64,000 bases of DNA from Acidimicrobiia bacterium (GTDB taxonomy: Bacteria > Actinomycetota > Acidimicrobiia > Spongiisociales > ZC4RG35). Location of the stretch: contig OZ244034.1 of assembly GCA_965215185.1 (NCBI GenBank), positions 1,184,001-1,248,000 of the forward strand, given 5' to 3'. The notes beneath the pieces were generated by a model. The model saw only the letters and a list, made by a program, of their open reading frames with translations, was not told the DNA's origin and ran no database searches. A program made the translations under genes and the position numbers. This document shows, piece by piece, positions 1-36,318 of this stretch; position 1 is the stretch's first letter, and each line of letters begins with the position of its first letter.

Positions 1-858
1 GTTCACCGGCCCGGGAACCGCTCCGTCGGAGTCACCATAGTCCACCGTGAACCTCTCCCCTTCAATTGTGACCGTCACCGCCATCCTGATCAAGTCATGG
101 GAGACCCCGTCATCATCCAACCAGTCATAGGCCGACCACTTCCCATCGGGCATGGCTCGCACCGCCTCCCGGGCCGTCTCAGCCCCGTGCTCGATGATCA
201 GATCGACCGCCTCATCAACAGCGCTCAAGCCGAACTTCTCCCAAATCTGATGAAGCCGCCGCTCCCCCACCCGTAGACAGGCGACCTGGGCATTGAAGTC
301 GCCGGTGATATTCACCGGCAACCTGGAGTTGTATCGCAGGATGGCCATCATCTGCGGGTCGACCTCTCCCCGCCGGACCAGCTTAACCGCCGGGAGGATC
401 AGCCCCTCCTGATGTACGGAAGTGGAATCCAACACATAACCGGGATCCTTGGCGCCCAAATCCATCCAATGGGCCCGCACCGCCAGATAAGCATCGGGCG
501 CCTCACTGCCCTCGCAGAACACCGGAGCGAACATCATGGCGTCGGCAGCGTGGGCGCCGCTCCAATAGGGATAGTTGAGGATTACCACGTCACCGGGATG
601 AAGGTTTTCAACACCCACTCTCTCCACACCCTTGACAATTGCGTAGTCGTTGGCGCCCAGGAAGGAAAGGAGCCCCGACGACTCGGCGATCAGCCGATGG
701 TTCCGGTCGTACATGGAGATACCAAAATCCAGCACCTCATAGATGACCGGGTTGAAAGCGGTCCTCACCAGGGTTCGGCGCATCTGCTCAGCCGTGGAGT
801 TGAGATAGTGACGGATCACCTCCACGGTGGCGCCATCCAGAGTGGGACCGGCATTCAT
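1..858 (-). CDS. Hydantoinase B/oxoprolinase-family subunit, third tandem copy (3' end runs off window edge)
   Basis: Not in the ORF track; manual translation from ATG at 858 gives MNAGPTLDGATVEVIRHYLNS...NYPYWSGAHAADAM...RAHWMDLGAKDPG, collinear with the two neighbouring copies. Confidence 0.93.
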   Translation of the reverse strand, partial: MNAGPTLDGATVEVIRHYLNSTAEQMRRTLVRTAFNPVIYEVLDFGISMYDRNHRLIAESSGLLSFLGANDYAIVKGVERVGVENLHPGDVVILNYPYWSGAHAADAMMFAPVFCEGSEAPDAYLAVRAHWMDLGAKDPGYVLDSTSVHQEGLILPAVKLVRRGEVDPQMMAILRYNSRLPVNITGDFNAQVACLRVGERRLHQIWEKFGLSAVDEAVDLIIEHGAETAREAVRAMPDGKWSAYDWLDDDGVSHDLIRMAVTVTIEGERFTVDYGDSDGAVPGPVN

Positions 859-875
859 CTCATTCGCCGCCGGAT

Positions 876-2600
876 TCAGGACAGCGGGCGATCCAGACGC
901 GCCCCGGTAGCGGTGGCGGTCCCATCCTCCTCCAACTTGACCCCATACACTCTTTCCGCCTGTTCCACCGACACATATTCGTCCAGAACGTCCTCTCGCA
1001 CCAACTCGATGGGACGATCCAGAGGATCACCCCATCCTCCCCCACCCGCTGAAAGGTTACGGAACCCCTCTCCCGGCTGCATGGTGAATCTTTCCATCCG
1101 CGCCCGGTGAGCGCGTTCGGTGTCCGGCCACACGATCATGGCATTGGTCTCCGGCTCATGCCCACCCCGCAACGCCCACGGCTTGGTCTTGGTCTTCTTC
1201 TTCATCGACAGCATCTCGCCGGTGGCAAGGAACTTCACCTCCCGGCAGATTCCCAGGCCACCCCTCCATCTGCCCGCCCCGCCCGAATCCTGACGCAACT
1301 CCAATCGCTGGTGAAAGATCGGAGACTTGTGCTCCAAGACCTCCATCGATGTGTTTCGGACCGCGCTGGTGGAGGGATGCTGCAGGGCGTTGGCACCGTC
1401 GTGATTCGGTGTGGCTCCCCATCCGATTCCCTCGTTGTTGCTGACCGCGTACATGTCTTCGGTGTCGGGATGGGTCCCCACGGCCATGAATCCCGGCTCG
1501 TCGGAGCCGGAAGAGGCATGGATCTGAGCCATCCCTTGCGCCAGGGCCTTATTGATCAACTCGAAGGCCGCCATACCGGTCCAGAGGGTGAAGGTGGCCG
1601 CTGGGTATACGGCGTGAAACAGGTTGCCCGGCGGGCAGGATACCGTCAGCGGTGCATAGTGGCCGTGGTTGGCAGGAGTATCGGGGGTGGTGAGGGACTT
1701 GAACACCGTCTTCGCCAGGCTCAAGGTCTTCCCGAAGGGCATGTTTACCGGCCCGGGCACCGCCCCGTCGGAGTCGCGGTAGTCAACCGTGAACTTGTCT
1801 CCTTCGATGGTGACCGTAACCGCCATTCTTATCAGGTCGTGGGAGATCCCGTCATCATCCAGCCAGTCGAAGGCCGACCATTGACCGTCGGGCATGGCCC
1901 GCACAGCTTCGGAGGCGGTCTGCGCGCCGTGCTCGACAATGCGATCGATGGCGGTGTCCACTTTGGCCAGCCCGAACTTTTCCCAAATCTGGTGAAGACG
2001 GCGCTCCCCCACCCGAATGGCGGAAATCTGAGCGTTGAAATCCCCGATGATGGTGTCGGGCATCCGGGAGTTGTATCGGAGGATGTCCATGATCTGGGGA
2101 TCGACCTCTCCCCGGTTGATCAGTTTTATTCCCGCAAAGATCAGACCCTCCTGATGCATGGAGGTGGAATCCAGCACATAGCCGGGGTCCTTGGCGCCCA
2201 AATCCATCCAATGCGCCCTCACCGCCAGATAGGCGTCGGGGAGTTCGCTGCCCCTACAGAACACCGGCGTAAACAACATGGCGTCGGAGACATGAGCACC
2301 GCTCCAATAGGGATAGTTGATCATCACCACATCGCCTGGATGAAGGTTCTCTACTCCCACCTTCTCAACGCCCTTGTGGATGGCATAATCGTTGGCGCCC
2401 AAGAAAGAAAGTATGCCCGACGACTCTGATATCAGCCGACGGTTGCGGTCGTACATGGAGATACCGAAGTCCAGCACCTCATAGATGACCGGGTTGAAAG
2501 CAGTTCTCACCAGGGTGCGGCGCATCTGTTCAGCCGTCGAGTTGAGATAGTGACGGATCACCTCCACGGTGGCGCCATCCAGGGTAGGACCGGTACTCAT
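876..2600 (-). CDS. Hydantoinase B/oxoprolinase-family subunit, second tandem copy
   Basis: ORF 876..2741, start moved to ATG 2600 (MSTGPTLDG) by alignment to paralogs; motifs LVRTAFNPVIYEVLDF, GAHVSD, RAHWMD, DSGGAGRWRGG, GGGGWGDP. Confidence 0.93.
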   Translation of the reverse strand: MSTGPTLDGATVEVIRHYLNSTAEQMRRTLVRTAFNPVIYEVLDFGISMYDRNRRLISESSGILSFLGANDYAIHKGVEKVGVENLHPGDVVMINYPYWSGAHVSDAMLFTPVFCRGSELPDAYLAVRAHWMDLGAKDPGYVLDSTSMHQEGLIFAGIKLINRGEVDPQIMDILRYNSRMPDTIIGDFNAQISAIRVGERRLHQIWEKFGLAKVDTAIDRIVEHGAQTASEAVRAMPDGQWSAFDWLDDDGISHDLIRMAVTVTIEGDKFTVDYRDSDGAVPGPVNMPFGKTLSLAKTVFKSLTTPDTPANHGHYAPLTVSCPPGNLFHAVYPAATFTLWTGMAAFELINKALAQGMAQIHASSGSDEPGFMAVGTHPDTEDMYAVSNNEGIGWGATPNHDGANALQHPSTSAVRNTSMEVLEHKSPIFHQRLELRQDSGGAGRWRGGLGICREVKFLATGEMLSMKKKTKTKPWALRGGHEPETNAMIVWPDTERAHRARMERFTMQPGEGFRNLSAGGGGWGDPLDRPIELVREDVLDEYVSVEQAERVYGVKLEEDGTATATGARLDRPLS

Positions 2601-2617
2601 CTCATCGCCTCGGGGGA

Positions 2618-4345
2618 TCAGGGGGACAAGCGATCCAATCGCGCCTCGGTAGGCATGGCGGTTCCGTCCGCCTTCACCTTGACGCCATACACTCTTTCCG
2701 CCTGTTCCACTGACACATATTCGTCCAGAACGTCTTCCCACACCAACTCGATGGGACGATCCAAAGGATCACCCCACCCTCCCCCACCCGCTGAGAAGTT
2801 GCGGAACCCCTCTCCACGCTGCATGGTGAATCTCTCCATCCGCGCCCGATGGGCCCGGTCGGTGTCCGGCCACACGATCATGGTATTGGTGGTCTCCGGC
2901 TCGTGCCCACCCCGAAGCGCCCATGGCTTGGTCTTGGTCTTCTTCTTCATAGAAAGCAGTTCGCCTGTGGCAAGCCACTTCACCTCACGGCACACACCCA
3001 ACCCTCCCCGCCACCTGCCGGCCCCGCCCGAATCCTGCCGCAACTCCAGCCGCTCATGAAAGATGGGCGACTTGTGTTCCAAGACTTCCAGGGAGGTGTT
3101 TCTGACCGAGGTGGTGGAAAGATGCTGCAGAGCGTTAGAGCCATCGTGAGTCGGGGTGCCCCCCCAGCCGATCCCCTCGTTGTTGCTGACCGAGTACATC
3201 TCCCCAGTGTCGGGATGGGTTCCCACCGACATGAATCCCGGTTCGTCGGAACCGGAAGATGCGGCAATATGGTCCATCCCCTGGGCCAGTGCTTTGTTGA
3301 TCAACTCGAAGGACACCATTGCCGTCCAGAGAGTGTAGGTGGCGGCCGGATACACGGCATGGAACAGATTCCCGGGCGGACAGATCACCGTTAAAGGTTC
3401 ATAGTGGCCATGGTTGGCAGGAGTGTTGGGAGTGCTGAGGGACTTGAAAACGTTCTTGGCCTGACTCAACGTACTCCCGAACGGCATGTTCACCGGCCCG
3501 GGCACCCCGTCATCGGAGTCCCCATAGTCCACCGTGAACTTCTCCCCATCGATAGTGACCGTAACCGCCATCCTGATCAAATCATGGGAGACCCCGTCAT
3601 CATCCAACCAGTCGAAGGCCGACCATTGTCCATCGGGCATGGCCTGCACCGCCTCCCGGGCGGTCTGCGCGCCATGCTCGACTATCAGATCGATCGCCGT
3701 GTCCACATTGGCCAGCCCGAACTTCTCCCAAATCTGGTGAAGACGTCGCTCCCCGACCCGCATGGCGGAGATCTGAGCGTTGAAGTCCCCCATGATGGTC
3801 TCGGGCATCCGGGAGTTGTATTGCAGGATGGCCATGATCTGAGGATCGACCTCTCCCCGATTGATCAACTTCACGCCCGGCAGGATCAAACCCTCCTGAT
3901 GTATGGAGGTGGAGTCCAGCACATAACCGGGGTCCTTGGCGCCTAAATCCATCCAATGCGCCCGCACCGCCACATAGGCATCGGGGAGATCGCTCCCCTC
4001 ACAGAACACCGCGGTGAACATCATGGCATCGGCGGCGTGGGCGCCGCTCCAATAGGGATAATTGATTATCACCACATCGCCTGGGTGGAGGTTCTCAATG
4101 CCCACCTTTTCAATGCCCTTGTGAATGGCGAAGTCGTTGGCGCCCAGGAAAGAGAGTATTCCCGACGACTCCGATATCAGCCGACGGTGCCGGTCATAAA
4201 TGGAGATACCGAAATCCAGCACCTCATAGATAACCGGGTTAAAAGCGGTTCTCACCAGGGTGCGGCGCATCTGTTCAGCCGTCGAGTTGAGATAGTGACG
4301 GATCACCTCCACGGTGGCACCGTCCAGGGTGGGACCGGTACTCAC
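2618..4345 (-). CDS. Hydantoinase B/oxoprolinase-family subunit, first tandem copy
   Basis: 575 aa, GTG start overlapping the stop of the A subunit; same family motifs. Confidence 0.93.
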   Translation of the reverse strand: MSTGPTLDGATVEVIRHYLNSTAEQMRRTLVRTAFNPVIYEVLDFGISIYDRHRRLISESSGILSFLGANDFAIHKGIEKVGIENLHPGDVVIINYPYWSGAHAADAMMFTAVFCEGSDLPDAYVAVRAHWMDLGAKDPGYVLDSTSIHQEGLILPGVKLINRGEVDPQIMAILQYNSRMPETIMGDFNAQISAMRVGERRLHQIWEKFGLANVDTAIDLIVEHGAQTAREAVQAMPDGQWSAFDWLDDDGVSHDLIRMAVTVTIDGEKFTVDYGDSDDGVPGPVNMPFGSTLSQAKNVFKSLSTPNTPANHGHYEPLTVICPPGNLFHAVYPAATYTLWTAMVSFELINKALAQGMDHIAASSGSDEPGFMSVGTHPDTGEMYSVSNNEGIGWGGTPTHDGSNALQHLSTTSVRNTSLEVLEHKSPIFHERLELRQDSGGAGRWRGGLGVCREVKWLATGELLSMKKKTKTKPWALRGGHEPETTNTMIVWPDTDRAHRARMERFTMQRGEGFRNFSAGGGGWGDPLDRPIELVWEDVLDEYVSVEQAERVYGVKVKADGTAMPTEARLDRLSP

Positions 4346-6387
4346 CTCACCACCAGGTTCCCCAAGTGGTCGGGAACCGCCGTTTGGTCGCTATGGATAA
4401 TCGTCACGGAAGTGGGTTCACGAATAATGGCCGGACCCTCAATCTCCACTTCCGGTTGAAGGAGACGGCGCTCGTAGATGGAAAACAGGCGGCGCTCCCG
4501 GGTAGCGAAGTCGAAGGCAAAACGCTCCCCGACGCGACTGACCACCCCGTCACCCCGGGAGGCATTGCCGGTGTCAAGGTGGCCGGAGGGCTTCTCCAAG
4601 AGTCCGATTGCCCTGACCCGGGCGGTCAGGATCTGGATTTCCTCTTTCAGTTTGTGGCCGTAGCGCTCCAAGTGTTTGTCATGAAATTTGGCGGCTACGG
4701 ATTGGGTGTCGTGTGTCTCTTCCAAGTCGACCGACAACGTGTGCTCCTGACCGTTGTAACGCAGATCCAATCTCCTGAGCAACATCCTCATCTCGGGCGG
4801 CACCGACTGCGTGGCAAGCACTCGATCTGCCTCGGCCTCCAGTTGAACGAATAAACTATCCATCTGGGCCAGAGCAGCGTCATCCAGCATGGTCAGCACC
4901 GTCTGCCCCAAGTCGTACTCCAAGTCGGACATCAGCATCCCCCAAGCGGAGAACACCGCCGGAGCGGCGGGAACCACCACTTCGGGCAGTTCCATCTCCC
5001 TGGCCAGAAGGGGCGCCAGCATCGGCCCGGCGCCTCCGAATGCCACCAGCGCAAACTCTCTGGGATCCAGACCTCTCTCCACGGTGATTTCGCGGATGGC
5101 GCCGACGGTGCGGGCTAGCAGCACGTCGAAGACCGAGGCAGCGGCTCGCCCGGTGGACATGCCCAGCGGTTCGGCCAGTTTCTCGGTGACGCCACGCACC
5201 GCCGCGTCCAGGTCGAGACTCATCTCTCCTCCCAGGAACTCGTCTGCCGCCAAGTACCCCAGACACAAGGAAGCGTCGGTGACAGTCGGCTCGGTGTTGC
5301 CCCGGCCGTAGCAGATCGGTCCGGGATCGGCGCCGGCGCTGTGGGGGCCTACTCGAAGGAGCCCCTTGTCCATCCAGGCGATAGATCCACCTCCCGCGCC
5401 GATAGTGCGGATGTCGAACACCGGGATACGGATCGGAAGACTCTCGATCTCTGCTTCATAGACCTCGGTGGGCACCCCATCCACGATCACGCAGGCATCC
5501 AGACTAGTTCCTCCCACATCAAAGGAGATGAGAGCGGAGCGTCCGGTGGCCTCTCCCAAGCTGATCGTCCCGGCGATGCCACCGGCCGGACCGGAAAAAA
5601 CGGTGAGCAGGGGTGACACCCGGGCTATCTCCGAAGTCATCGCCCCGCCCGCCGAACGCATTATCAAGAAGGAGCCGTCGAAGCCCCCCTCACGCAACCG
5701 GTCTTCCAAATCGGTGAGATATCGACCCAAAATAGGCCGGATATAGGCATCGGCGACCGCGGTGGAAGTCCGCTCATATTCGTGATATTCCCTTACCAGA
5801 TCGACCGAGACGGACACCGAAAGGTTGGGAAACGCCTTGGTCAGGATGCTCTTGGCAGTCTCTTCGTGTTCGGTGTTGGCATAGGAATGGAGGAAGCAAA
5901 CCGCCACCGACTCCACTCCCCGCTCGGACAGAAGACGCCCCGCCTCGATCACCGCTTCCTGGTCGAGTTCCTCCACCACCTTGCCACGGTGATCGACACG
6001 CCCGGGCACCCCCACCGTGTGACGGCGGCGCACCAACAGTTGCGGGCGACGGTACTGGAAGTCGTACATTGAACCACTGGGCAGATCTCCCCGGGCTATC
6101 TCGAAGATGTCCCGAAAACCGGCATTGGTGATGATGCCGGTCACCGCCCCCTTGCGTTCCAGGATGGCGTTGACCCCCAAGGTGGTGCCGTGGGTGTAAA
6201 CCGAGGCCTGTTCGAGGGAGGCGTTGGTTGCCCGGGTAGCGGTGATCACTCCGTCGGCTGGAGCGGCGGGGGTGGTGGGAGCCTTTCGCACCGTGATCTT
6301 CCCGCTCTGCTCGTCATAGGCGATGGCGTCGACGAAAGTTCCACCGATGTCCACCGCCAAGCGGTATTTGCGTTTAGTCATGCTCAT
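4342..6387 (-). CDS. Hydantoinase A/oxoprolinase-family ATP-binding subunit
   Basis: AVDIGGTFVD, HGTT, EYERTST, SGPAGG, DVGGTS, IGAGGGS, FGGAGP motifs. Confidence 0.94.
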   Translation of the reverse strand: MSMTKRKYRLAVDIGGTFVDAIAYDEQSGKITVRKAPTTPAAPADGVITATRATNASLEQASVYTHGTTLGVNAILERKGAVTGIITNAGFRDIFEIARGDLPSGSMYDFQYRRPQLLVRRRHTVGVPGRVDHRGKVVEELDQEAVIEAGRLLSERGVESVAVCFLHSYANTEHEETAKSILTKAFPNLSVSVSVDLVREYHEYERTSTAVADAYIRPILGRYLTDLEDRLREGGFDGSFLIMRSAGGAMTSEIARVSPLLTVFSGPAGGIAGTISLGEATGRSALISFDVGGTSLDACVIVDGVPTEVYEAEIESLPIRIPVFDIRTIGAGGGSIAWMDKGLLRVGPHSAGADPGPICYGRGNTEPTVTDASLCLGYLAADEFLGGEMSLDLDAAVRGVTEKLAEPLGMSTGRAAASVFDVLLARTVGAIREITVERGLDPREFALVAFGGAGPMLAPLLAREMELPEVVVPAAPAVFSAWGMLMSDLEYDLGQTVLTMLDDAALAQMDSLFVQLEAEADRVLATQSVPPEMRMLLRRLDLRYNGQEHTLSVDLEETHDTQSVAAKFHDKHLERYGHKLKEEIQILTARVRAIGLLEKPSGHLDTGNASRGDGVVSRVGERFAFDFATRERRLFSIYERRLLQPEVEIEGPAIIREPTSVTIIHSDQTAVPDHLGNLVVR

Positions 6388-6405
6388 TTCTGGGGGGCGT
6401 AGCGG

Positions 6406-7587
6406 TCAGGGGGCCGGTCGGTCGTCCCGCACCACCCGGCCGGACTGCATAACGAAGGAGATATCTCTCATCGCCGCCACATCCGACAACGGGTTTTCTT
6501 CAACGGCGACCAGATCAGCAACTTTACCCTCCTCAACGGTACCGATTTCCGACTCCAATCCCAAGAGCCGAGCGGCGTTGGAAGTGGCCCCCGCCAGCGC
6601 CAGTTGCGGGTGCAGACCGGCGCCTTCCATAAGCCCCATCTCGTGCACCGCCACCGAGGTTCCCCCGATGGGATCACCGGGGGGATAGTCGGTTCCGTTC
6701 ACCATGGTCACCCCGGCCGCCACCGCCCGGCGGATGCTGGCCAGGTGCATGGGACCTACCTGTAGAGAGGTCTCGATCTGGAATTCTTCGAATCCCTTCC
6801 ATCTCATCCACTCTTGTGAGCGGGTGACACATAGGGTGGGAGTAAGGAACACTCCTTTTGCCGCCATCCTCCCAGCCGTCTCCTCGTCCAAGTCGTAAGC
6901 GTGCTCGAAGGAGCGGATTCCGGCATCCAGGGCCCGCTTGATGGCCAGGGAGGATCCAGCATGAGCCACCACATAGGTGTCGCGATCGGAAGCGGCGTCC
7001 ACCGTCGCCTGCATCTCGGCCAGGCTCATCTCCGGATGGTCAAACTTCTCTCCCATATTGGCGATTCCCCCGGTGATGAACACCTTGATGTGTGAACAAC
7101 CCGAATCCAATTCAGCCAGGGCCGCCTCGCGGAAGGCCTCCGGTCCGTCGGCAATAACGCTGCCAATCCCATCGCCATGACCGCCGGTAGTGGAGATCGC
7201 CCGACCGGCCCCCACGATCCTGGGAACATCAGCCCAGCCGGCCCGAGCCGCCTTTGCCAGCAGCAAGTCCGCCTGATTCAACTCATGCACGCAGCGGATG
7301 GTGGTGACTCCCGCCCGCAGGGCATCCTGCGCCCTCTGATAGGAGCGGAGCACGGTGAGCCCCGGATTCTCATTTTCGTCGGTGGCGGAAAAGGGATAGA
7401 CCACCGACAGATGAGTATGCACCGAGATCAGACCGGGAACCAAATAACGCCCATCTAGGCTAATTCGTTCCCCGGCGCCCGGCTGTTTTTGGATAGAGCC
7501 GATCCTTCCTTCGGAGATCTCCACACTCACCCCGTCCCGGATCTCCCCGGTGACAACATCCACCACCCTGGCATCGGTCAGCCACAT
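6406..7587 (-). CDS. Metal-dependent amidohydrolase (prolidase-like subgroup)
   Basis: PGLISVHTH (HxH), IKVF lysine, VAHA, FEHA, GTD, GKVADLV motifs; AGGAGG ahead of ATG 7587. Confidence 0.88.
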   Translation of the reverse strand: MWLTDARVVDVVTGEIRDGVSVEISEGRIGSIQKQPGAGERISLDGRYLVPGLISVHTHLSVVYPFSATDENENPGLTVLRSYQRAQDALRAGVTTIRCVHELNQADLLLAKAARAGWADVPRIVGAGRAISTTGGHGDGIGSVIADGPEAFREAALAELDSGCSHIKVFITGGIANMGEKFDHPEMSLAEMQATVDAASDRDTYVVAHAGSSLAIKRALDAGIRSFEHAYDLDEETAGRMAAKGVFLTPTLCVTRSQEWMRWKGFEEFQIETSLQVGPMHLASIRRAVAAGVTMVNGTDYPPGDPIGGTSVAVHEMGLMEGAGLHPQLALAGATSNAARLLGLESEIGTVEEGKVADLVAVEENPLSDVAAMRDISFVMQSGRVVRDDRPAP

Positions 7588-7589
7588 CT

Positions 7590-10280
7590 TCAACCTCCTT
7601 GTTCTATTTTTTCGGCAACTGTCCGGGCTCTGGCGAGCCAGGAATTTTCTTCCCCGCGCCGTCGCAGACGGTTGCGGAGTTCGGGATCTTTGGAGTCTGC
7701 CAGCGCCAGATCCAGCGCCTTTGACATTCCCTCAGCATCACAATAGGAATGCACTTCCGGAAAAGCCACAACTTCCGGCATCTTGCTACACACCACCGGT
7801 TTTCCTCCCGCGAAGTATTCAAATAGCTTGAGCGGGGATGTAGACACAGTGATCTCGCTGACCACAAACGGGATCATGGCCACATCGAAGGACTGAAGCC
7901 ATCTGGGCAGGTCCTGATAGGGCTGAGCGGTGACCCATTCCACATTAGGCAGGGTGAACACCGGGCGGTTCTTAGCGCTCTGGTCATAGGCGGGTCCAAT
8001 CAGCAGAAAGCTCCAGTCTTTTCGCTTCTCGGCCACCTCGGCCAGCAAGTCGTAATCCATCCAGCGGGCGATGGCGCCGTAGTAGCCGACGATAGGCCGG
8101 CCTTCCTGGAGGAAGCGTTGGAGGGCAGGATGAGCAGGTGAGGATACTTCCCAGTTGGCGAAATGCTCGAACTCCACCGCGTTGGGCAGATATATGGTGT
8201 CCGGGCGGTGTTCGCTTGCCTTTTCCAGCAGACTCCGGGCGCTGGCCGAGGTCATCGCAGCCCCCGAGAGAGCCAGGTCATGAAGTCCGTGCAGTTTATT
8301 CAGGTCGTACCCGTCGAAGACATCAAGTTCATCTATCCAGTCGTAGAGAGTCCGGGTTCCCTCCGGGAAGTCGGCGGCGCGTTCCCAGTTGTAGGTGAGC
8401 GCCCAAACCAGCGGATCGGGCAGGAGATGGAGAACCTCGGGAGGACCGTTGTAAAGGAAAAGTCGGGGCTCGATCTCTTCCCACCCGGGCTTTCCCTGGT
8501 TGGAATTGTCGAAGATCACGGTGTAACCCAGACGGGCAAAGGCTTGGGCAAGTTGCTGTGGTCTTTGAAACAGATGGACATACCAGTCGATGTTGAGCAG
8601 AAAGACCACGACTCCCCGGCTGTCGGCAATCCGGTCGGTGACCACATCAGGAATCGGCGACTGCGGACCGTCAGATGAAGACGGATGTTCGCTCTGCGGC
8701 TTCCCGGCCAGCCTCATGGCCTTCTGGCGGAGCTTGCTGCGGACCCTCCAATATTTGGTCACCATTTGGATGGCGCGGGTTTGACGTAGATCGTCGAGTT
8801 CCAACTGGAGCAAATCGCCTCGTCGCTCCGCAAACTGGTGCTGATCGTATGCCGCCTGCACTTCCTCACGGGCCAGTTGCAACTCCTCACGGGCCAACTG
8901 CAATTCATCCTGAGTAGACCGGAGTGCGTCCTCTTTCCTGATGATGCGGTTCCGAAGATCCAGATTGTCTCCCTTGGTGTTATCCAAATTGGTCTGCGTT
9001 TCGGAAAGATTCCGGGTGAGAGCTAGGGCAATCTCCTTTTGGATGGCCTGAAAACCGCTGGATGGCGTTTCGTCCATCCCCCCGGCCATAGCCTTGTCGA
9101 CCGAAGATCGGAAAGAACGGGCCTTGCCCAGCATCGATTCCGCCTGAACGTACATGAAATGAGAGAGGTCGGGACAATTCCTCCAGACTTCTTCAAGTGA
9201 TTCATTCAAGCGGGCCCAGGAGCCCTCATCATCGGAAAGGCTCCAACGGCCAAGGCCAAGTTCGGTGACCATACGGGTCACTTTGGGATCGTAAGAAACC
9301 GACACCGAAGGGGTTCGGTTCATCGCCGCCAGGATGGTTCCGTGCAATCGCATGTTGAGGGCCAAATCGCACCGCCCAAATACCGTGAGCAGTTGACCGG
9401 GGTTGAGACCGGGTGGGACGACATACACATTGGCAGTCATCTGTTCACTCATGCGGTCACAACAACGGCGGTCGTCGAAGTCCCCGGAGCCCAACTCTTG
9501 CATAGGGACGAAAACCACTGACCCACCGTTCTTCTCACAGAAGATGTCCAGGGCCTCGGCCAACTCTTGCTCCCGCTTGGCCTGAACCCCCGAAGGCCCC
9601 CATGATCGGGGAGCCACTGCAACTAGTGGTCGGACCGCACTCGAGAGCATCTCGTTCACATCCGCGGGCAATTCGTCCGGTTTGATCAGCCAAGCGGGGT
9701 CCCCAACCACCTGGGAATCAACAATGCCAAGCGACTCCAGTTCGGATTGGTCCTCTTGGGTCCGGACCGTGAATACCGAGGAGACCTCGGCCAATGCCTT
9801 CACCCAGCGCCGGGATCTGCCGCTATGAAAGGGACCCACCCCCACTCCCCACACCAGGACCGGACGCCCGACGGCGGCGGCGGCGAAAGCAGGCCCCAGA
9901 TAGCCGGGAATATCCCCCGCCTCTCGGCTAAGAACATGCTCCGGTCGGAAACCCCACTGGTCGGACAGGAGACCCCCTCCCCCCACTATCACCATCCGGG
10001 ACCGATAGGCAGCGGACAACACCGCCGGGATGTCGGCCCGGTCCACAGCAAGAACCCCGTGTCTGACCAAGGTGTCCTCAGGGTCCCCGGACACAACCAC
10101 CCAGCGCCCTGCGGGCGACACCTGCCGAAGGAGCCTCAACATCCCGGCTAGGATGGCTTCATCTCCGAGGTTCTGGAATCCGTAGTGACCAACGATCAAT
10201 GCATCGGGTGAAACAGAAATGTCTGTTACTCCACTTGCGGACGACGAACCGACGCTTGACACGAACTCAAAGGCTATCAC
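7590..10280 (-). CDS. Polysaccharide pyruvyltransferase (CsaB-like) - coiled coil - glycosyltransferase (GT-B, TuaH-like) fusion
   Basis: N-term GHYGFQNLGDEAIL, VGGGGLLSD, GVGVGP, MRLHGTI, SYDPKV; heptad E/Q/L-rich middle; C-term FQRPQQLA, GYYGAIARW, SPLKLFEYFAGGKPVV; start uncertain. Confidence 0.88.
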   Translation of the reverse strand: MIAFEFVSSVGSSSASGVTDISVSPDALIVGHYGFQNLGDEAILAGMLRLLRQVSPAGRWVVVSGDPEDTLVRHGVLAVDRADIPAVLSAAYRSRMVIVGGGGLLSDQWGFRPEHVLSREAGDIPGYLGPAFAAAAVGRPVLVWGVGVGPFHSGRSRRWVKALAEVSSVFTVRTQEDQSELESLGIVDSQVVGDPAWLIKPDELPADVNEMLSSAVRPLVAVAPRSWGPSGVQAKREQELAEALDIFCEKNGGSVVFVPMQELGSGDFDDRRCCDRMSEQMTANVYVVPPGLNPGQLLTVFGRCDLALNMRLHGTILAAMNRTPSVSVSYDPKVTRMVTELGLGRWSLSDDEGSWARLNESLEEVWRNCPDLSHFMYVQAESMLGKARSFRSSVDKAMAGGMDETPSSGFQAIQKEIALALTRNLSETQTNLDNTKGDNLDLRNRIIRKEDALRSTQDELQLAREELQLAREEVQAAYDQHQFAERRGDLLQLELDDLRQTRAIQMVTKYWRVRSKLRQKAMRLAGKPQSEHPSSSDGPQSPIPDVVTDRIADSRGVVVFLLNIDWYVHLFQRPQQLAQAFARLGYTVIFDNSNQGKPGWEEIEPRLFLYNGPPEVLHLLPDPLVWALTYNWERAADFPEGTRTLYDWIDELDVFDGYDLNKLHGLHDLALSGAAMTSASARSLLEKASEHRPDTIYLPNAVEFEHFANWEVSSPAHPALQRFLQEGRPIVGYYGAIARWMDYDLLAEVAEKRKDWSFLLIGPAYDQSAKNRPVFTLPNVEWVTAQPYQDLPRWLQSFDVAMIPFVVSEITVSTSPLKLFEYFAGGKPVVCSKMPEVVAFPEVHSYCDAEGMSKALDLALADSKDPELRNRLRRRGEENSWLARARTVAEKIEQGG

Positions 10281-10301
10281 GCAAAACAGGAGGATGGTTT
10301 A

Positions 10302-11558
10302 ATGCCGTTTGACCTGACCGCCGCCCTAGAGGCCGCCGACAACCTGCGCGGCTACGAAACAGGAATGCTCTCCTCTTTGGTCTCCTGCCTTAGCGTGCGC
10401 GCCGAGGCATCCGATGTGCATGAATTGTGCGCTAAAGAACTGGAGGGGTTGGGAATGGAGGTGGAGTTGGTCGTTCCCCGGGTGGAAGAGTTGGAAAGCC
10501 ACCCCGAGTGGTGTCCCCCAAGTCCGGCCAGCATCGAACCGGGACGGCTGGTAAGCGTGCTGGGATCATATGGTGAAGGTCCGGGCATTTTCTTGTTTGC
10601 CCATACCGATACCGAGCCCCCCGATCCCCGTGGTGCCTGGGATACCGATCCCTACCGGGCGACGGAGGTGGGAAATCGGATCTACGGCGTGGGCGCCGCT
10701 GACGACAAGGCAGGGGTGGTTTCGGTGCTGGCCGCCGCCCGGGCTCTGCTCCCTCACCTGGCGGGAGTGCGGCTGGTGGTAGGGCTTGTGCACAGCAAGC
10801 TGGGGGGCGGTTTGGGGACGCTTCCCACCATTGCACGGGTAGGAAATGTGGATACCTCCATCTACTGTCACCCGGCGGAGACTGGTCAGGGAATGACCCA
10901 CTTCAAGATCGCCACCCGCGGCTTTTTCAACTTTCGCATCGAGACGGTGGGCAGGCGCCCCGACCCGGTGGAGATCCGCACACCCAACTCCGAGGATCCC
11001 CGCCAGGGAGTCAACGCCTTTACACGTCTGCGGCGAGTCCTGGACGAGGTGGACCGATGGGCAGACCGGGAAGGGATGCTGTGCTCGGTGAACTGGATTT
11101 CGGCAGGCATCAATCCGATCACGCTGCCCGAGCATGCTGTGGCAGAGGGGTCCGTCTGGTTCCGCCACGGGACAGTATCCGAAGTCTACGAGGGCCTGAA
11201 CCAATGCGCCCTAGGGGCGGGGGCGCTCTCCACGCAATTGTTCGGCCTCCAATCGAACCCAGCCGAGATTCCTCCCGATCATCCTCTGGTAACAGCCACC
11301 ACCCTCGCGATTGGCGCCGAAACCGGAATCACTCCCGCCGTATACCCGGCCCATGTAGCCAGCGACATCCGCTTTCCGATCCGCTGCCTGAACGCCGCCA
11401 CGGTGGGATTCGGCGCCAAGGCCGGAAACTTCTATGGCCCCAACGAGTGGGTGGATGCCGAGGACATGCACCGCGCCACCCGAGTGATAGTGCGGATCGT
11501 TTCTGCCTGGGCCGACCAGGCGACCAGCGGTAGTCCCTGGCCGCGTTTGGGTAGTTAG
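10302..11558 (+). CDS. M20/ArgE-like metallo-hydrolase with atypical ligand set
   Basis: AHTDT, IYGVGAADDKAG, GVNA, SDIR, PNEWV motifs; GGAGG-like SD upstream. Confidence 0.8.
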   Translation: MPFDLTAALEAADNLRGYETGMLSSLVSCLSVRAEASDVHELCAKELEGLGMEVELVVPRVEELESHPEWCPPSPASIEPGRLVSVLGSYGEGPGIFLFAHTDTEPPDPRGAWDTDPYRATEVGNRIYGVGAADDKAGVVSVLAAARALLPHLAGVRLVVGLVHSKLGGGLGTLPTIARVGNVDTSIYCHPAETGQGMTHFKIATRGFFNFRIETVGRRPDPVEIRTPNSEDPRQGVNAFTRLRRVLDEVDRWADREGMLCSVNWISAGINPITLPEHAVAEGSVWFRHGTVSEVYEGLNQCALGAGALSTQLFGLQSNPAEIPPDHPLVTATTLAIGAETGITPAVYPAHVASDIRFPIRCLNAATVGFGAKAGNFYGPNEWVDAEDMHRATRVIVRIVSAWADQATSGSPWPRLGS

Positions 11559-11839
11559 TGCTTTCGGCTGTGGCGTTGGTCGGGTGACGATTGCCGACAG
11601 TAACCGGCCAAAAGCTCAGTCGCTATTAAGGGCCTGAGATTGCCGATTCGGAACCAAGCTTCTCTCCGATAGGACCTTGGAGCATCCCGTATCCCCACGG
11701 GACGCACACCCACCCAAACCTGGACAACTCGCGAAAACAACGGCAAGGAGACGGCGGGGGAGGGAACCCAACAGGAAACAAACCACCCACCCCGAAATTC
11801 GCGACTTAGCGTCGCCGTGAATGACTCTCTACTTGAAGG

Positions 11840-13833: not shown

Positions 13834-16125
13834 TCACTTGATCACGATAAGGCTGAACCCGGAGCCATATATCACGATGCCCAAGTCATCAATCCCGTCA
13901 ACTTGCTCTTCCCACACTTCCTCGAACGTCTCGACCTTGACAAACTCCTCGTTCACCTGGAACTTGTGGCTGGCGTGATAACTCCACAAGGTGAAGAAGG
14001 TACGGAACTTTCGGCCGGGAGCGTATAACTCGACTTCCTCAAGACTTAGACCCGGAGTGGTGGCGAACTCGCGATTCCGGAGTTCCTCAAGTTCCTTCTC
14101 ATCCTGGGCGTCCTTCACGATCCAGACAATTAAACGAGAATCCACATAACTGATCTCGTTCGAGTCCAAGGCGTCGTCCCTATCTCTGTCACTGAAAATC
14201 TCAGCATCGATGCTGACAAGGAACTCATAACTATTCCTGAAACCAGAGGGGACTTCAATCTCAATATCGGCAGTCACGCCCCTCCGGTTGACAATGATGC
14301 TCGGGGTCCCCGAAGCGCCGGGGGTTGCTTCCACTGTGTAAGTACCGTCACCAAAAGGAGTCAGGGCATGGTATAGCTGGTAACTCAGGGTGGCAGACAG
14401 GTCAGTATTGGACCTTCCCGTGTAGCGAGAGTCCGTACCCCGCAGGGTCGCTCCGTATTGGTCGAGCAACTCGTATTCAACGGTGAATTCAATCCTGTCG
14501 CCGTCCCGCTCTTGGTACAACTCGAAGTCGGGCTGGGCGGCCACTAAGACGGAGCCACCATCACTCCAGGCAATCTGATGACTTTGCTTTGTGCAACAAT
14601 CTGCCTCGAAAGTCACCGTGTCCAAGCGTTCGTCACTGGTCGGACCCCTCAAGTTGAACGTGGCCTTGCCCGTGCTGTCCGTTAGCACCGGCGTGTCTTC
14701 ACTGGTGTTACGTCCCATGCTGACAAAGCCGGGATCTGGCAGACCACCGGTCACATCCGCAGCTTCCACCCTTATCCGGCGGCTCTCAACTTCGATATCT
14801 ATTGGCACTCCCTCCCTCTCCAAGCGAGTGCCATCTTCATCGAGGAGTTGGATGGCGAATGCCACAGATGAACGTCGATCCAGGTCAACTATGAATGCCC
14901 CGTCACCGCCTATCCGGGCAGCGTTGGCAGGCACGTCGTGCTTCACAAAGAGGCTGTCTGCATCCTTTTCAGACTTTGCTTGGGCCATCGAGAAATCCGA
15001 AATGTCGTCATCGAATTCTTCTCCGTCCCGGCGGCCGACCCAGCCATAGCTGCTCATGGTTGCACCCGGTGTTGCATCAAAATAGGTAAAAACGTTCCCA
15101 TCCAGATCGGTGACCTCGTCTTCGTCATCGTCCCAGACGCAGTCACCCTTTCCCAGGATCACCCCCTCATCACAAGTGCCGTCTCTCTGCAGCCCGCCAC
15201 CGGGATCATCGGTGTAGAACCAGTCCACCGCCCCATCCTCGACAGGAGCGAAGCTGTCGTCGCGAACGGAAACCATCATCACGATTTCGAAATCTTCCAC
15301 ACCCTCAGTGGGTGTCACCTGCACCAGCACGCCTCTTGGGCGCAGATTGGAATGGTCCAGAATCGCCGCCATGAACTCCGCCATCACCGCCCGGGACATG
15401 TCTGTGTTCGGACCATACGTAACGTTGGACAATCCGCTCGCCACCCCCAGTTCGTATAGTTCGATCACCGCTTCGTTGACGGTGTGGGAAACCCTTTCCA
15501 GGTCCTGGAAAGGAGAAGCAACGTCAAAGTTTCCGTCGTTGTCATTGACATCATCGGGTATGAATCCAAATGCCCGTCGCCCGTCTGCCACTGGAACCAT
15601 TCGGTCCATAAGCCGCTGCAAGAAGAGCGCCATCTCGCCGCGGCTGACATTCCGGGCTGGCGCATAGGTAGTGGCGCTTGCGCCGACCGTAATCCCCAAT
15701 TGGTATATCTGGCTGATGGCCTCCCGGGACAATGGCTTCAAATCCGCCACGTCTTCGAAGGGAGTCTCTCCAGCCGGGGGGAGGTTGATGCCCACCAGCC
15801 TGGCAAATCGGACCAATAAAAGCGCCATGTGCTCGCGGATGACCGGCCGGTCCGGCGAAAATGTAGTGGCAGAGGTGCCATTGGTTATCCCGTAGTAAGC
15901 AATGCAATCGATGTCGCCGGCGCTGGGGTGGCCGGCAGACACATCGACAAACCCGGTGCTGGGGATGATGTTCTCCGGGCAAGCCTCCAAAGAGGCACCA
16001 TAGTCGGGCGCCGGGTCGGCGGCCTTGAGAGGTGTCGGGAAGATCACTAACGCGCTGATAAGCAACGATGAAGCGGCCAGCAACCCAACTGAGCGATTCA
16101 AGTTTATGGAGAAGCGAGTTGCCAC
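13834..16125 (-). CDS. Secreted SLH-domain cell-surface protein, acidic
   Basis: Signal peptide ending LKA-A; three SLH-like repeats (FVDV..VIREHMALLL, FEDV..VSRGEMALFL, FQDL..MSRAVMAEFM); long beta-rich C-terminal region; start 16125 or 16131. Confidence 0.82.
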   Translation of the reverse strand: MATRFSINLNRSVGLLAASSLLISALVIFPTPLKAADPAPDYGASLEACPENIIPSTGFVDVSAGHPSAGDIDCIAYYGITNGTSATTFSPDRPVIREHMALLLVRFARLVGINLPPAGETPFEDVADLKPLSREAISQIYQLGITVGASATTYAPARNVSRGEMALFLQRLMDRMVPVADGRRAFGFIPDDVNDNDGNFDVASPFQDLERVSHTVNEAVIELYELGVASGLSNVTYGPNTDMSRAVMAEFMAAILDHSNLRPRGVLVQVTPTEGVEDFEIVMMVSVRDDSFAPVEDGAVDWFYTDDPGGGLQRDGTCDEGVILGKGDCVWDDDEDEVTDLDGNVFTYFDATPGATMSSYGWVGRRDGEEFDDDISDFSMAQAKSEKDADSLFVKHDVPANAARIGGDGAFIVDLDRRSSVAFAIQLLDEDGTRLEREGVPIDIEVESRRIRVEAADVTGGLPDPGFVSMGRNTSEDTPVLTDSTGKATFNLRGPTSDERLDTVTFEADCCTKQSHQIAWSDGGSVLVAAQPDFELYQERDGDRIEFTVEYELLDQYGATLRGTDSRYTGRSNTDLSATLSYQLYHALTPFGDGTYTVEATPGASGTPSIIVNRRGVTADIEIEVPSGFRNSYEFLVSIDAEIFSDRDRDDALDSNEISYVDSRLIVWIVKDAQDEKELEELRNREFATTPGLSLEEVELYAPGRKFRTFFTLWSYHASHKFQVNEEFVKVETFEEVWEEQVDGIDDLGIVIYGSGFSLIVIK

Positions 16126-16197
16126 AAACACCTCACGGCACTGGCGAAGGGACTTATCGTACCGAGTCCAACCCGCGTCCCTCCCGCCGTCACCCTT

Positions 16198-17148
16198 CTA
16201 AGCTGACCACACCCTCTTGAATAGATCAATCCAGTTATGACCGAGAATGCCCGCCATGGCATCGCAGGGATAGCCCCGTTTGATGAGCTCATTGGTGATG
16301 TTGGGAATCTGAGCAGGTGTCTCCAGACCGATCGGATAAGTGCCTGAATCGTCGGGATAGTCCTCGATGCTCCACTCGCCTGAAGCGATCATCTCTGCAT
16401 GGACCGCCGGGCTGGTTTCGCAGAAATCCAGCCCCAACCCGACCTGGTGAGGTCCGATCAGGTCGACCAGGTAGTCGATGTGATCCACCAGGTCGGCCGC
16501 TGTAGCGCCTTTGCCTCCCTGTTTGAGGAAGGCCGGATAGGCGTTGACCCCCACCAATCCGCCCAAGTCCGCCACCGCCCTGATCTGCTCGTCGTCTATA
16601 TTGCGGCGATTGGCACAGAGCGCCAGTGGGTTGGAGTGCGAAAAGACCGGAGGGGAGGACGAGACCCGCATGGCGTCCATGGTGGTGCGCCGACCGGTGT
16701 GGGACAGATCCACCACCATACCAAGACGGTTCATCTCCCCAATGACCTCCCGGCCGAACGAGGTGAGGGGGCCATCACCGGGTTCCAGACACCCGTCTCC
16801 CACCAGGTTGGTCCGGTTGTAGCAGATCTGGACCATCCGCAGGCCCTGGCGGTAGAACCGCTCGTAGTTAGCCAGGTCGTCGCCTAGCGGGAGGGTGTTC
16901 TGGAAGTGGATGATCACACCCAGCTTCCCGGCCACGGGGAACTGGTCGAAGTCCGAAGGCTCATCGATTCCGATCAGGCGGTCGTCCTCGGTCAACCACC
17001 GGTCCCACTGGTCAAGCAAATCCTGGGTCTCGGCAGGAGTCTCCCAGTTGGCCGCGGTGGGCACCGCGATATCCACCTCTCCCTCGATCCAACTGTCCCA
17101 AGAGTCGGGGTCGGTCATCAAGGGGCAGACCCCGTCAACAACAGTCAT
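16198..17148 (-). CDS. Membrane dipeptidase (M19) family protein
   Basis: MNRLGMVVDLSH, FSHSN, RNIDDEQI, VDHIDY, VGLGLDF motifs. Confidence 0.88.
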   Translation of the reverse strand: MTVVDGVCPLMTDPDSWDSWIEGEVDIAVPTAANWETPAETQDLLDQWDRWLTEDDRLIGIDEPSDFDQFPVAGKLGVIIHFQNTLPLGDDLANYERFYRQGLRMVQICYNRTNLVGDGCLEPGDGPLTSFGREVIGEMNRLGMVVDLSHTGRRTTMDAMRVSSSPPVFSHSNPLALCANRRNIDDEQIRAVADLGGLVGVNAYPAFLKQGGKGATAADLVDHIDYLVDLIGPHQVGLGLDFCETSPAVHAEMIASGEWSIEDYPDDSGTYPIGLETPAQIPNITNELIKRGYPCDAMAGILGHNWIDLFKRVWSA

Positions 17149-17169: not shown

Positions 17170-19532
17170 TTAGGGAAGTCTGAAAACACTGAGCCCCGAG
17201 CGGCGGCTGGAATATAAGGATATTGTCAGATCAGCCAGAGAGGCACCGGACTGGGAAGCAAAGGTAGCCAAGCTTTCCTCGAACTCCCCGATACCGACCT
17301 CCTCACCCCCGACGAAGAACCGGTCGTTGGTCTGATCGTAACTCCAGAGAGTAAAGCAAGTACGGAATTCGTTTCGATCTGGATAGACAGCTACGGGGGG
17401 ATATTCAACGTCTGCAGGACCGGTTAGAACACATGCTGTCGGCTTGTCTCCATCGTCAGTGGCTTCCTCGACGATCCACACCACCACTTCATCCTCTGCA
17501 TACCTGACTTCGAGGGGTCGTCCAAGAGACCCGTCATCACCTGTATCACATTGGAGTCACTAAAGATGCTAGGCTTCAGCACCACCAAGAACCCTTCGTC
17601 GTTTTTAGCTGGGGTATTTCTGCAGTCAATACGCTGCTCGTGTATCGCCCACGACTGAACGTCATGGTTTCGGGAGGGTCAGCCCCCGAGGTTACGCTTC
17701 AGACCTTCAGTGGTCACTACTTCCCGCTCCGTTGCCGTCAATGTTTGCAACACTGTACAACTCGTAAGCCAATTGACCTTTGAGGGTCGTCCCTTCCCTC
17801 CCGGTACGGCTGTCCGCAGTGCTGGAAACAGAATCGCCGTATTGGTCGTACAGGCCATACTCAACCGGGATACTGACTCTGAAACTGCTGGACTTCCGGA
17901 CATACAGGTCGAACTGGGGCCGGGCGCTCATCAGCACGGGTGGTCCATCGGTCCAGGCGATCTCGATCGTCACCGGCTCGCAATCCTGGCAATCGGGGTC
18001 GAAAGTAACTACGTCGAGCCGGTGATCCCGGCGAGGGGCGTCGAGTTCGAACACCGCCTCTCCATCGCATCGGTAACCACCGTCTCGTCGTCTTGATCAT
18101 CGTCTGGAAGCAGGTCATAGGACGGAGCTGGTTCATCGTCGGTCATTCACTTCACTTGCGAACAGCAAGATGTCGTCGCTGTCGACCTGAACCTCTATCT
18201 CCACACCCTCTCCAAGGCCTGCTGCTCGTCATCCAGTAGCTGGATCGTGAACTCAATCGAATCGATATCAAGATCGACAATGTATATTTCGTCATCCATT
18301 CTGAACGCATTGGCGGGAATGTCTCGGTCGTCCCACGTCACGCTGATACTGTCGGCACCCTTCGCCGAATGCGCCTCCGCCTTCGAAAAGTTCACCGTGT
18401 CCTCGTCGAATTCGTCTCCGTCCGTGCGACCCACCCAGGCGTAGAAGGTCATCGTCTCTCCGGGCGTAGCTTCGATCCTGTCGTTGAAGATGTTCCCGTC
18501 CTGATCGGTTTCATCATCATCGTCTTCGTCCCACACGCAATCAGCATCACTAGGTTCAATGAAGTCCTCGTCACACTCACCCCTGTCCAGACCGCCGTCG
18601 GGATCGTCGGTGTAGAACCAATCCACTGGCTGGTCCTCAACTGGAGCAAAGCTCGAGTCTCGAACCGAGATCATCATGTCGATGTCGAAGTTGTCCAAGC
18701 CGGAGGTGGGTGACAATTGCACCACCACCCCCGCGGGACGCAGATTGGAGTGATCCAGAATCGCGGCCATGAACTCCGCCATAACCGCTCGGGACATATC
18801 CTCACGCGGGCTGTAGAACCTGTCGGAGCCCAAGTAGCCGCTCGCTATCCCCAGTTCATAAAGATGGGTAACGGCGTCGAATACCATGACAGATTCATCC
18901 TCCAGGTCCCTGAACGGAGACTCCACATCGACGTTGTTGATGTTGTCGTCAACATCATCGGGGATGTACCCGTATTCAGTTGAGCCGTCTGTTAGCGGAT
19001 CCATGAGGTCCATCAGCCGCTGGAGAAACAGCGCCATCTCACCACGGCTGACATGGCGGGCCGGGGCGTAGGTTGTGAGGGTCGCCCCTTGAGTTATCCC
19101 TAACAGAGCCAACTGGCTGATGGCGTCCCGGGACCCTTGTGACAAATCGGCCACATCCGTAAAAGAAGTGGTGCTGCGGGGGGCGGGAACCCGTATCCCC
19201 ACCCGTTTGGCCAGCCTGATCAGAAAGAGTGCCATGTGCTCGCGGATCACCGGGTCATCGGGTGAATATGTGGTGGCTGAAGTGCCCTTGGTGATTCCGT
19301 AGTAGGCGATGCAGTCGATGTCACCGGCGTTGTCATGGCGGGCCGAGACATCGGAGAAGTCGGCGTCGGGGATGACATCTTCGGGGCAGGCTTCGAAGGT
19401 GGCCAGGTAGTCGGGCGCCGGGTCGGCCGCTTTGATGGGAGGGGGGGCTATCGCAAACAGGCTGACCAGCAGGGAGATGCCGGCCAGCAATCCGACCGAC
19501 CGAGAGAACGGTCTGGATGAGTGAGTTGCCAT
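17170..19532 (-). pseudogene. SLH-domain protein paralog broken by multiple frameshifts (pseudogene or assembly errors)
   Basis: Fragments 18195..19532, 17707..18054 and 17170..17487 each align in order with the 13834..16125 protein (AADPAPDY, DIDCIAYYGIT, VEYxLxDQYG, FRTxFTLWSY). Confidence 0.8.
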
Positions 19533-19791
19533 GAAACACCGTCGATTCTTTTGCGAGATGCCCAGCGCCCGCCCAGGCACCTACCTATTCCTTAACTTGT
19601 CCGAAATTATAGGCATGGGCAGAAACAACCGTGGTCTTAACCCCCCGTCTGAATGCCCCCGGTCGGCAAGGCCATGTTAGGATACCGTCGGGTAGGGCTT
19701 CATAAAGGCGGGCTGGCCTGGCAGGCTATCTCGACTGATGGCCGTACCAAGCAACCCGAATCAAACCAAACCCCAAGAAAAGGAAGGAAAG

Positions 19792-21735: not shown

Positions 21736-21762
21736 TCATCCGGTAGTACTTTGAGAAAAGCT

Positions 21763-21805
21763 GGACAAGCCGCCGTGTCAGATCTTCTGGTACGGCGGCT
21801 TGTCC
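21763..21805 (+). terminator. Stem-loop after the substrate-binding gene (partial terminator or mRNA stabiliser)
   Basis: GGACAAGCCGCCGT ... ACGGCGGCTTGTCC 14-bp inverted repeat followed by TTT. Confidence 0.75.
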
Positions 21806-21827
21806 TTTCCAGGGCCAGACCACGCTG

Positions 21828-29432: not shown

Positions 29433-29484
29433 TGATCTGCGTCGTTTGAGTTTTTCCTAGTTCAGACTCAAACGACGCAGATCA
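29433..29484. terminator. 19-bp perfect inverted repeat between convergent genes
   Basis: TGATCTGCGTCGTTTGAGT (29433-29451) / ACTCAAACGACGCAGATCA (29466-29484). Confidence 0.8.
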
Positions 29485-31389: not shown

Positions 31390-31421
31390 TCGCCCCCAGT
31401 TTAATACCTTGAAAAAGGTTG

Positions 31422-31538
31422 TCCGGCAGTGACCTACTCTCCCGGGGTTTTGCAACCCAAGTACCATCGGCGCTGTCAGGTTTCACTTCCGTGTTCGGAA
31501 TGGGAACGGGTGGTTCCCCAACGCTATCGCCACCGGAC
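31422..31538 (-). rRNA. rrf: 5S rRNA
   Basis: Reverse complement has ACCCGTTCCCATTCCGAACACGGAAGTGAA and GATGGTACT...GGGAGAGTAGGTC; terminal helix TCCGG/CCGGA. Confidence 0.95.
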
Positions 31539-31576
31539 AACCAAACTCACAACAAGCAAATCATCTGGGATTCTCT

Positions 31577-34635
<3,059 letters not shown>

Positions 34636-34665
34636 AGAGAATCCAAGACAATTTGCTTGTTATGA

Positions 34666-34801: not shown

Positions 34802-36318
<1,517 letters not shown>

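Follow-up and report, generated by a model that had tools for sequence, protein, structure and literature searches.

One hydantoinase A gene with three anciently duplicated B genes in an Acidimicrobiia bacterium: a possible ATP-dependent lactamase with exchangeable hydrolytic subunits

ATP-dependent lactamases are sought as biocatalysts for the opening of very stable rings such as caprolactam and valerolactams (PMC8453981, PMC11033972). A two-gene system of this kind is CapAB of Pseudomonas jessenii (PDB 6YRA; PMC8453981). The available portions of the CapAB paper describe an (alpha-beta)2 tetramer arranged as A-B-B-A, in which a dimer of CapB forms the core, the ATP site lies in A and a metal site composed of Asp41-His99-Asp102-His124 lies in B. 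In the model put forward there, the lactam is activated in A and then proceeds through a tunnel of ~40 Å to B. Here, we describe an operon that combines a single A gene with three B genes. It is found in a stretch of 64,000 nucleotides from an uncultured Acidimicrobiia bacterium (assembly GCA_965215185.1, contig OZ244034.1, positions 1,184,001 to 1,248,000 of the forward strand). This whole stretch is called the window, and coordinates refer to it unless they are given for a named related locus. The three B genes are ancient tandem duplicates that arose by unit duplication, and each of them is an intact positional orthologue that purifying selection has maintained in at least a dozen species. 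It is plausible, judging from their sequences, that they encode swappable specificity subunits.

The operon consists of five minus-strand genes within positions 1-7593, as seen from the listing of open reading frames and a reading of the sequence. AH, a gene of the amidohydrolase superfamily (6406-7593; Pfam Amidohydro_1, 3e-36), comes first. It is followed by the sole A gene of the operon (4342-6387), which codes for an ATP-binding, ASKHA-type subunit of 681 amino acids (Hydant_A_N, 6.5e-45; Hydantoinase_A, 3e-91), and then by the genes for the hydrolytic, metal-binding subunits. B1 (2618-4345; 575 amino acids) and B2 (876-2600; 574 amino acids) both span positions 1-519 of the 519-position Hydantoinase_B profile, at 8e-148 and 4.5e-149, respectively. 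B3 (1-858) is cut at the window edge, and its N-terminal 286 codons, which contain no stop, match profile positions 1-273 of 519 (1.1e-84). The GTG start of B1 overlaps the stop codon of A as GTGA (4 nucleotides). Two spacers of 17 nucleotides, both on the minus strand, separate B1 from B2 (2601-2617, with a GAGG motif) and B2 from B3 (859-875), and both have ATGAG at their 3' end, directly before the ATG of the next gene. With starts at 4345, 2600 and 858, the B genes repeat with periods of 1745 and 1742 bp. An earlier note, made from the sequence of this window alone, had described one A gene with three such head-to-tail B genes and proposed that they arose by unit duplication; the open reading frames and spacers are as it stated, Pfam agrees with its gene identities, and the origin by duplication is supported. 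Promoter-like and terminator-like sites, for which we scanned the operon, are no commoner there than in shuffled sequence. Together with the overlap between A and B1 and the two short spacers, this fits a single transcript, which is the simplest reading.

By their domain content, A and B belong to the hydantoinase/oxoprolinase superfamily, which includes ATP-dependent lactamases and carboxylases; the two domain matches of A, by which its membership is recognised, both pass the Pfam cut-offs. The metal-binding residues D44, H103, D106 and H130 (B1 numbering) align with D41, H99, D102 and H124 of CapB. This tetrad is invariant in 30/30 aligned B proteins and is also present in the B3 fragment, which supports the statement of the earlier note that all copies keep the D/H/D/H residues. 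Likewise, D13 and D290 of A align with the ATP-site residues D11 and D295 of CapA, both of which were mutated in the CapAB study, according to the part of it available (PMC8453981). An AF2 model of B1 has a predicted local distance difference test (pLDDT) score of 84.6 and resembles chain 9h03_A, with a template modelling score (TMq) of 0.91, and chain 6yra_B (0.87). As for function, the scores stay far below the cut-offs of the NCBIfam equivalogs. Those for CapA and CapB (NF050156, NF050157; cut-off 1000 bits) give 493.5 bits for A, 233.4 for B1 and 238.6 for B2, and those for acetophenone carboxylase (NF042975, NF042960, NF042976; cut-offs 1250-1500 bits) give 280.6 and 211.9 bits for A and 91.5-97.8 for B. 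A and B thus belong to the superfamily and correspond to no enzyme characterised in it.

The operon shares with CapAB the two-gene A/B architecture, the ATP-site aspartates, the metal tetrad and the fold. However, the B proteins are only about 26% identical, CapAB has one B per A whereas here there are three, pocket residues differ (C410-C411 in CapB are replaced by S/A and T/M), and an AH gene is joined into the module. The best sequence match in the PDB is an N-methylhydantoinase, a fused A-B chain of 1288 amino acids (PDB 7HK5-7HKA, 9H03), which scores 405.9 bits with A and 231.1 (single sequence) or 379.4 bits (profile) with B. The same chain is the best structural match to the B1 model. 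In that enzyme, A and B form one polypeptide and their ratio is fixed at 1:1, unlike the separate genes in a 1:3 ratio found here. An identity of 27% to a chain so named in the PDB is the sole link to N-methylhydantoinase activity. A search of the full-text literature returned no paper on the structure 9H03. Its chain 9h03_A is titled 'NMHase, dihydrouridine', a hint that relatives in the family may bind rings of the dihydropyrimidine type. Acetophenone carboxylase (Apc; 5L9W) and acetone carboxylase (5M45, 5SVB) have the superfamily and the fold in common with our proteins, as the B1 model matches their subunits 5l9w_A and 5m45_A at TMq 0.85-0.87, but these enzymes are carboxylases. NCBIfam describes both ApcA and ApcC as A-like. 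Apc thus shows that a single enzyme can contain paralogs of the same subunit type, although Apc doubles the A type rather than B.

To place the locus among its relatives, we scanned the species representatives of GTDB, which yielded 71 related loci, the best being 90% identical, and mapped A, B and AH on all 71 by tblastn (E<=1e-20). Thirty-four of these loci are from Acidimicrobiia, some titled Candidatus Spongiisocius or Spongiisociaceae, and the copy counts given for this class refer to them. Every one of the 34 has a single A gene. Three full B genes are present in 12 loci, two in 2, at least two before the end of the contig in 1 and one in 15, and the array is cut by contig ends in the other 4. 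A further 31 loci belong to other Actinomycetota, with one from Chloroflexota and one from Acidobacteriaceae among them, and a single B was found in 29/29 informative cases, L063 and L064 ending at a contig edge. An AH-A-B module with one B is thus the rule outside two marine lineages, and this, together with the (alpha-beta)2 composition of CapAB (PMC8453981, available part), agrees with the premise of the earlier note that one A to one B is normal in the family. The single-B modules of soil Actinomycetota (Actinomadura, Nonomuraea, Streptosporangium, Curtobacterium and others) have the same gene order at 57-65% identity and evidently represent the same enzyme family in its ancestral layout. 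They are flanked by a LacI regulator, a DHDPS-family gene, flavin adenine dinucleotide (FAD) oxidoreductases, a Dpp-type ABC transporter and a second amidohydrolase, none of which flank the operon in the window.

The second marine lineage is Candidatus Marinacidobacterales (Acidobacteriota), with 6 loci. In L054, L065 and L066, a single A is followed by two or three B genes in tandem. The B genes of L056, L062 and L071 stand alone, and no homologue of A was found within 10 kb of them, even at E<=1e-3. The tandem B genes of this order form position-specific clades of their own in a quick tree, which points to an amplification independent of that in Acidimicrobiia. As for the end of the array, the earlier note had suspected that it might be longer than three copies. 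No fourth full-length tandem B is found in any of the 12/12 related three-copy loci, and in L016 and L019, which contain the closest relatives of B3, uvrA begins within about 13 nucleotides after the third B, uvrC following uvrA in L016. By synteny with these two loci, the window array most likely comprises exactly three copies. In L002 (13688-16712) and L004 (13526-16762), a CitMHS/TrkA_C transporter gene and B fragments are found in or after the array, and in L004 they separate copies 2 and 3; these fragments look like relics of a further B copy. In L030, the single B (10001-11703) was matched as two overlapping pieces (10001-11269 and 11260-11703), which suggests a frameshift or a sequencing error.

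The phylogeny of the B proteins shows that the copies are old and have kept their places. Two trees were built: a quick one of 100 B proteins, comprising the matches that cover >500 query residues without stops and the three window copies, with fragments, the split L030 gene and contig-end pieces left out, and a careful one of 64 rows (59 Acidimicrobiia copies and 5 outgroups), for which support is given as bootstrap/Shimodaira-Hasegawa-like approximate likelihood ratio test (SH-aLRT). They agree on the positional clades. In the careful tree, the first-position copies, including B1 of the window, form one clade of 16 rows (100/98), the third-position copies, including B3, form another of 13 rows (100/99), and the copies of single-copy genomes form a third of 15 rows (95/93). 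B3 is 94% identical to the third copy of L016 (L016_p3). The second-position copies are not one clade, as two changes are needed to explain them, and they lie near the single-copy type. B2 of the window groups with L001_p2 and L002_p2, outside the main second-position clade. B2 is the window copy closest to the ancestral, single-copy type.

Within the window, the B genes are 81-85% identical in nucleotides and 84-87% in amino acids, with a synonymous divergence (dS) of 0.59-0.88 and a dN/dS ratio (omega) of 0.11-0.14, the pairwise check that the earlier note had called for. B2 and B1, for instance, have 86.9% amino acid identity, a dS of 0.59 and an omega of 0.117. Between orthologues, median omega is 0.081 at position 1 (120 pairs), 0.106 at position 2 (105 pairs) and 0.100 at position 3 (78 pairs), and B3 and L016_p3 give 0.046. 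The positional clades and the low omega within lineages imply that the duplications predate a dozen or more species and that every copy has been kept working since then. The first ~47 codons of the B genes (718-858, 2460-2600 and 4205-4345) are more alike than the rest: B1 and B2 share 95-96% of their nucleotides there, compared with about 82% elsewhere. We considered gene conversion as the cause. For codons 5-47, the identity is 0.910 between paralogs of one genome and 0.895 between genomes at the same position, while for codons 48-286 the corresponding values are 0.836 and 0.850. The signal is weak, and gene conversion was not retained as the explanation.

What distinguishes the three lineages was examined by looking for discriminating sites, at which every one of the three positional lineages is at least 80% conserved but the lineages differ from one another. 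They amount to 24 of the 575 B positions. The pocket and metal residues of CapB were placed on the B1 numbering by hand from the alignment. Three of the 24 sites coincide exactly with equivalents of CapB pocket residues (368, 410 and 411; 0.79 expected, P=0.04). Seven lie at a pocket or metal position or are no more than one residue away from it (104, 105, 344, 368, 385, 410 and 411; 2.17 expected, P=0.0034), and restricting the comparison to the 229 variable sites gives P=1.2e-4. Sites 104 and 105 are inside the H-x-x-D metal motif. At the discriminating sites, position 2 mostly retains the state of the single-copy proteins, and positions 1 and 3 have derived states. A re-specified B-B interface was also considered and is not seen, as the segment corresponding to the CapB dimer contact (CapB 129-174) contains 2 discriminating sites, with 1.9 expected. 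The three copies of the window do not differ at all over residues 4-47, a stretch that includes the first long helix of B (9-33 in the model). The equivalent helix of CapB contacts CapA, as described in the available part of the CapAB paper (PMC8453981).

How might such an array work? Based on sequence comparison, we consider it the most likely reading, at about even chances, that one A serves the three diverged B subunits, which would make alternative A2B2 isoenzymes. Each B would join this A in a complex like the A-B-B-A tetramer of CapAB, yielding up to three isoenzymes. A would spend ATP to activate a cyclic amide, and the B paralogs, with their different hydrolytic pockets, would open different members of a family of rings. 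AH would then split the ring-opened product, its solved relatives being enzymes that cleave N-acyl amino acids and dipeptides. This reading draws on the single A, the intact and separately conserved B lineages, the pocket-adjacent lineage-specific residues, the variable copy number, the orphan B genes and the repetition of the layout in another phylum. Swappable specificity in particular is favoured by the pocket-adjacent residues, by the existence of genomes with one, two or three copies and by the orphan B genes of a second phylum. The full scenario is more tentative, namely that one shared ATP engine with three exchangeable hydrolytic subunits of differing pockets arose independently in Acidimicrobiia and Marinacidobacterales, opening a family of cyclic amides with AH paralogs finishing the reaction.

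Several observations weigh against the shared-A reading. The four pairs of motifs by which the earlier note had illustrated clustered differences between B1 and B2 are present exactly as quoted, but the 76 raw differences between these proteins are not significantly enriched near the pocket (8, with 6.9 expected; P=0.38). The enrichment is limited to the subset of residues conserved within each paralog lineage. Discriminating sites 180, 182, 183 and 193 are located at or in helix 181-209, which in CapB is among the helices at the interface with CapA, so that docking to A may also differ between the B paralogs. B2 of the window does not have the A410/M411 state of the main second-position clade. 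The mapping of residues depends on HMMER alignments at about 26-27% identity, with the single-sequence and profile alignments shifted by one residue in the loop 407-414; the tolerance of one residue was chosen after the sites had been seen, and closeness to the pocket is that along the aligned sequence. The main conceptual objection comes from the CapAB model, in which activation of the lactam in A is the first step, as the available part of that paper has it (PMC8453981); specificity could then not reside in B alone, and A would need to accept every substrate. Finally, the window contains a second A gene, 19 kb away (25487-27634, plus strand, 40% identical to the A of the operon). The earlier note had counted additional A subunits just outside the window as evidence against its proposal, which applies here by half, as this A, inside the window, is coupled to a B of its own (27631-29310, plus strand, 33% identical to B1): the stop of A overlaps the start of B, in the usual 1:1 layout.

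Other explanations must be set against the shared-A reading. The paralogs might be partners within one enzyme, either as B-B' dimer cores of mixed composition or as parts of a larger hetero-oligomer, similar to the two diverged A-type subunits of acetophenone carboxylase. As CapB forms the dimeric core of the tetramer (PMC8453981, available part), paralogs could heterodimerise, and the B-B interface, with no paralog-specific change beyond expectation, would not block cross-dimerisation. The tight coupling of the B genes in one operon and the two A-like subunits that NCBIfam lists for acetophenone carboxylase also fit this view. Nevertheless, we regard it as rather unlikely. Genomes with one, two and three copies exist, and single-copy relatives keep AH-A-B, which is unexpected of obligate partners; all copies have a complete metal tetrad, orphan B genes occur, and three paralogs are ill-suited to a symmetric dimer core. 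It is less probable still, in our opinion, that the copies are functionally redundant and kept for dosage or by drift, with no differences in specificity. Their overall amino acid identity and the scatter of the raw B1/B2 differences would be compatible with redundancy. However, the synonymous divergence and the position-specific clades over 13-16 genomes denote a long separate retention, and the lineage-specific residues are themselves conserved and enriched next to the pocket. Moreover, amplification for dosage usually produces near-identical, unstable copies, and it is hard to see what an A2B2 enzyme would gain from B in surplus.

We consider equally improbable that some of the B proteins do without the A of the operon, being metal hydrolases in their own right or depending on another A such as that at 25487-27634. 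The second A/B pair in the window and the orphan B genes of Marinacidobacterales make this conceivable, but the distant A is only 40% identical to the A of the operon and overlaps the start of its own B, which is 33% identical to B1. The N-terminal helix identical in all three B copies also speaks against it, and no member of the family has been reported to be active without an A part (PMC8453981). An assembly artefact, in which strain alleles or a collapsed repeat are laid out in tandem, has next to no probability. The copies differ by 15-19% of their nucleotides, and each has its own orthologues. Moreover, 12 other genomes, assembled independently and in several cases titled whole chromosomes, show the A-B-B-B order as well. 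In addition, the window spans a complete 5S-23S-16S operon, presumably a rare occurrence in short-read contigs. As the positional orthologues are under purifying selection in 13-16 species-level genomes, both a chimera of strain alleles, which the earlier note had named as a possible refutation, and decaying duplicates are ruled out.

Returning to the proposed shared A with exchangeable B subunits, the surrounding genes give some indications of its substrates. The AH-A-B order is found in 63/71 loci; the exceptions are L056, L059, L060, L062, L070 and L071, where no AH was matched, and L010 and L011, in which AH lies upstream of A at a distance of about 2.2 kb. Among solved structures, the nearest relatives of AH are 9kov, the L-Arg carboxypeptidase Cc2672 (3mtw, 149 bits), the Xaa-Pro dipeptidase 2qs8 and the ochratoxinase 4c5y. 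With the NCBIfam Xaa-Pro dipeptidase model NF051886, AH scores 230.7 bits, below the cut-off of 500, which makes it a relative and not an equivalog. AH is tandemly duplicated in several three-B genomes (L015, 3672-6177; L018, 5425-7932; L024, 3679-6182; L028, 4070-6465) and partially so in L023. As its solved relatives resemble carboxypeptidases or dipeptidases, the ring-opened product is probably a dipeptide or an amino acid with an N-acyl or N-carbamoyl group. In Marinacidobacterales, AH is preceded by genes for a GntR regulator and an NCS1 permease, and the NCS1 family includes carriers of hydantoin and allantoin. Hydantoins and cyclic dipeptides are therefore our leading guesses for the substrates, based on AH and on the transporter context. 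The combination of genes around the module in soil actinomycetes is, we presume, similar to hydroxyproline or opine catabolic clusters, which we take as a lead only.

Further genes of the window complete the picture. The gene just upstream of AH (7590-10280, minus strand) codes for a CsaB-type pyruvyl transferase fused to a glycosyltransferase (Pfam PS_pyruv_trans and Glyco_trans_1_4). Its stop overlaps the listed start of AH, and the same gene precedes AH in L002 and L016. It may or may not be part of the operon, and it probably serves an unrelated function. Together with three proteins with SLH domains (13834-16131, 18195-19580 and 29482-31467, minus strand), one of which is an S41 peptidase with PDZ domains, this fusion protein suggests that the cells of this bacterium bear an SLH-anchored surface layer. 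Other amide- or peptide-cleaving enzymes are encoded around the locus: an M20 deacylase of the ArgE/DapE type (10302-11558, plus strand), divergent from the operon and also present in L002, and an M19 membrane dipeptidase (16198-17148, minus strand). The second hydantoinase pair comes immediately after the genes of a Dpp/Opp-type ABC transporter, which comprises SBP_bac_5, two permeases and two ATPases, the whole stretch extending from 19738 to 29310 on the plus strand. The rRNA operon is at 31421-36318 (minus strand), with tyrS beside it, and two tRNA genes are found at 58270-58341 and 62911-62982. The complete rRNA operon and the core genes indicate that the window is ordinary chromosome.

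The enzyme family is known; the new element is the conserved 1:3 A:B layout with lineage-specific pocket changes, arising twice. Our search of the full-text literature, whose coverage leaves out most subscription journals, returned nothing on tandem B genes or on this operon, and the available part of PMC8546597 mentions only PxpA, which is unrelated. How ATP-dependent lactamases choose their substrates is poorly understood. The operon is a natural experiment on the seat of specificity, in which A is held constant, B is varied three ways and evolution has marked 24 candidate residues. The repeated origin of the 1:3 layout, once in each of two phyla, suggests that cyclic amides of some class are important in the habitat that the two share.

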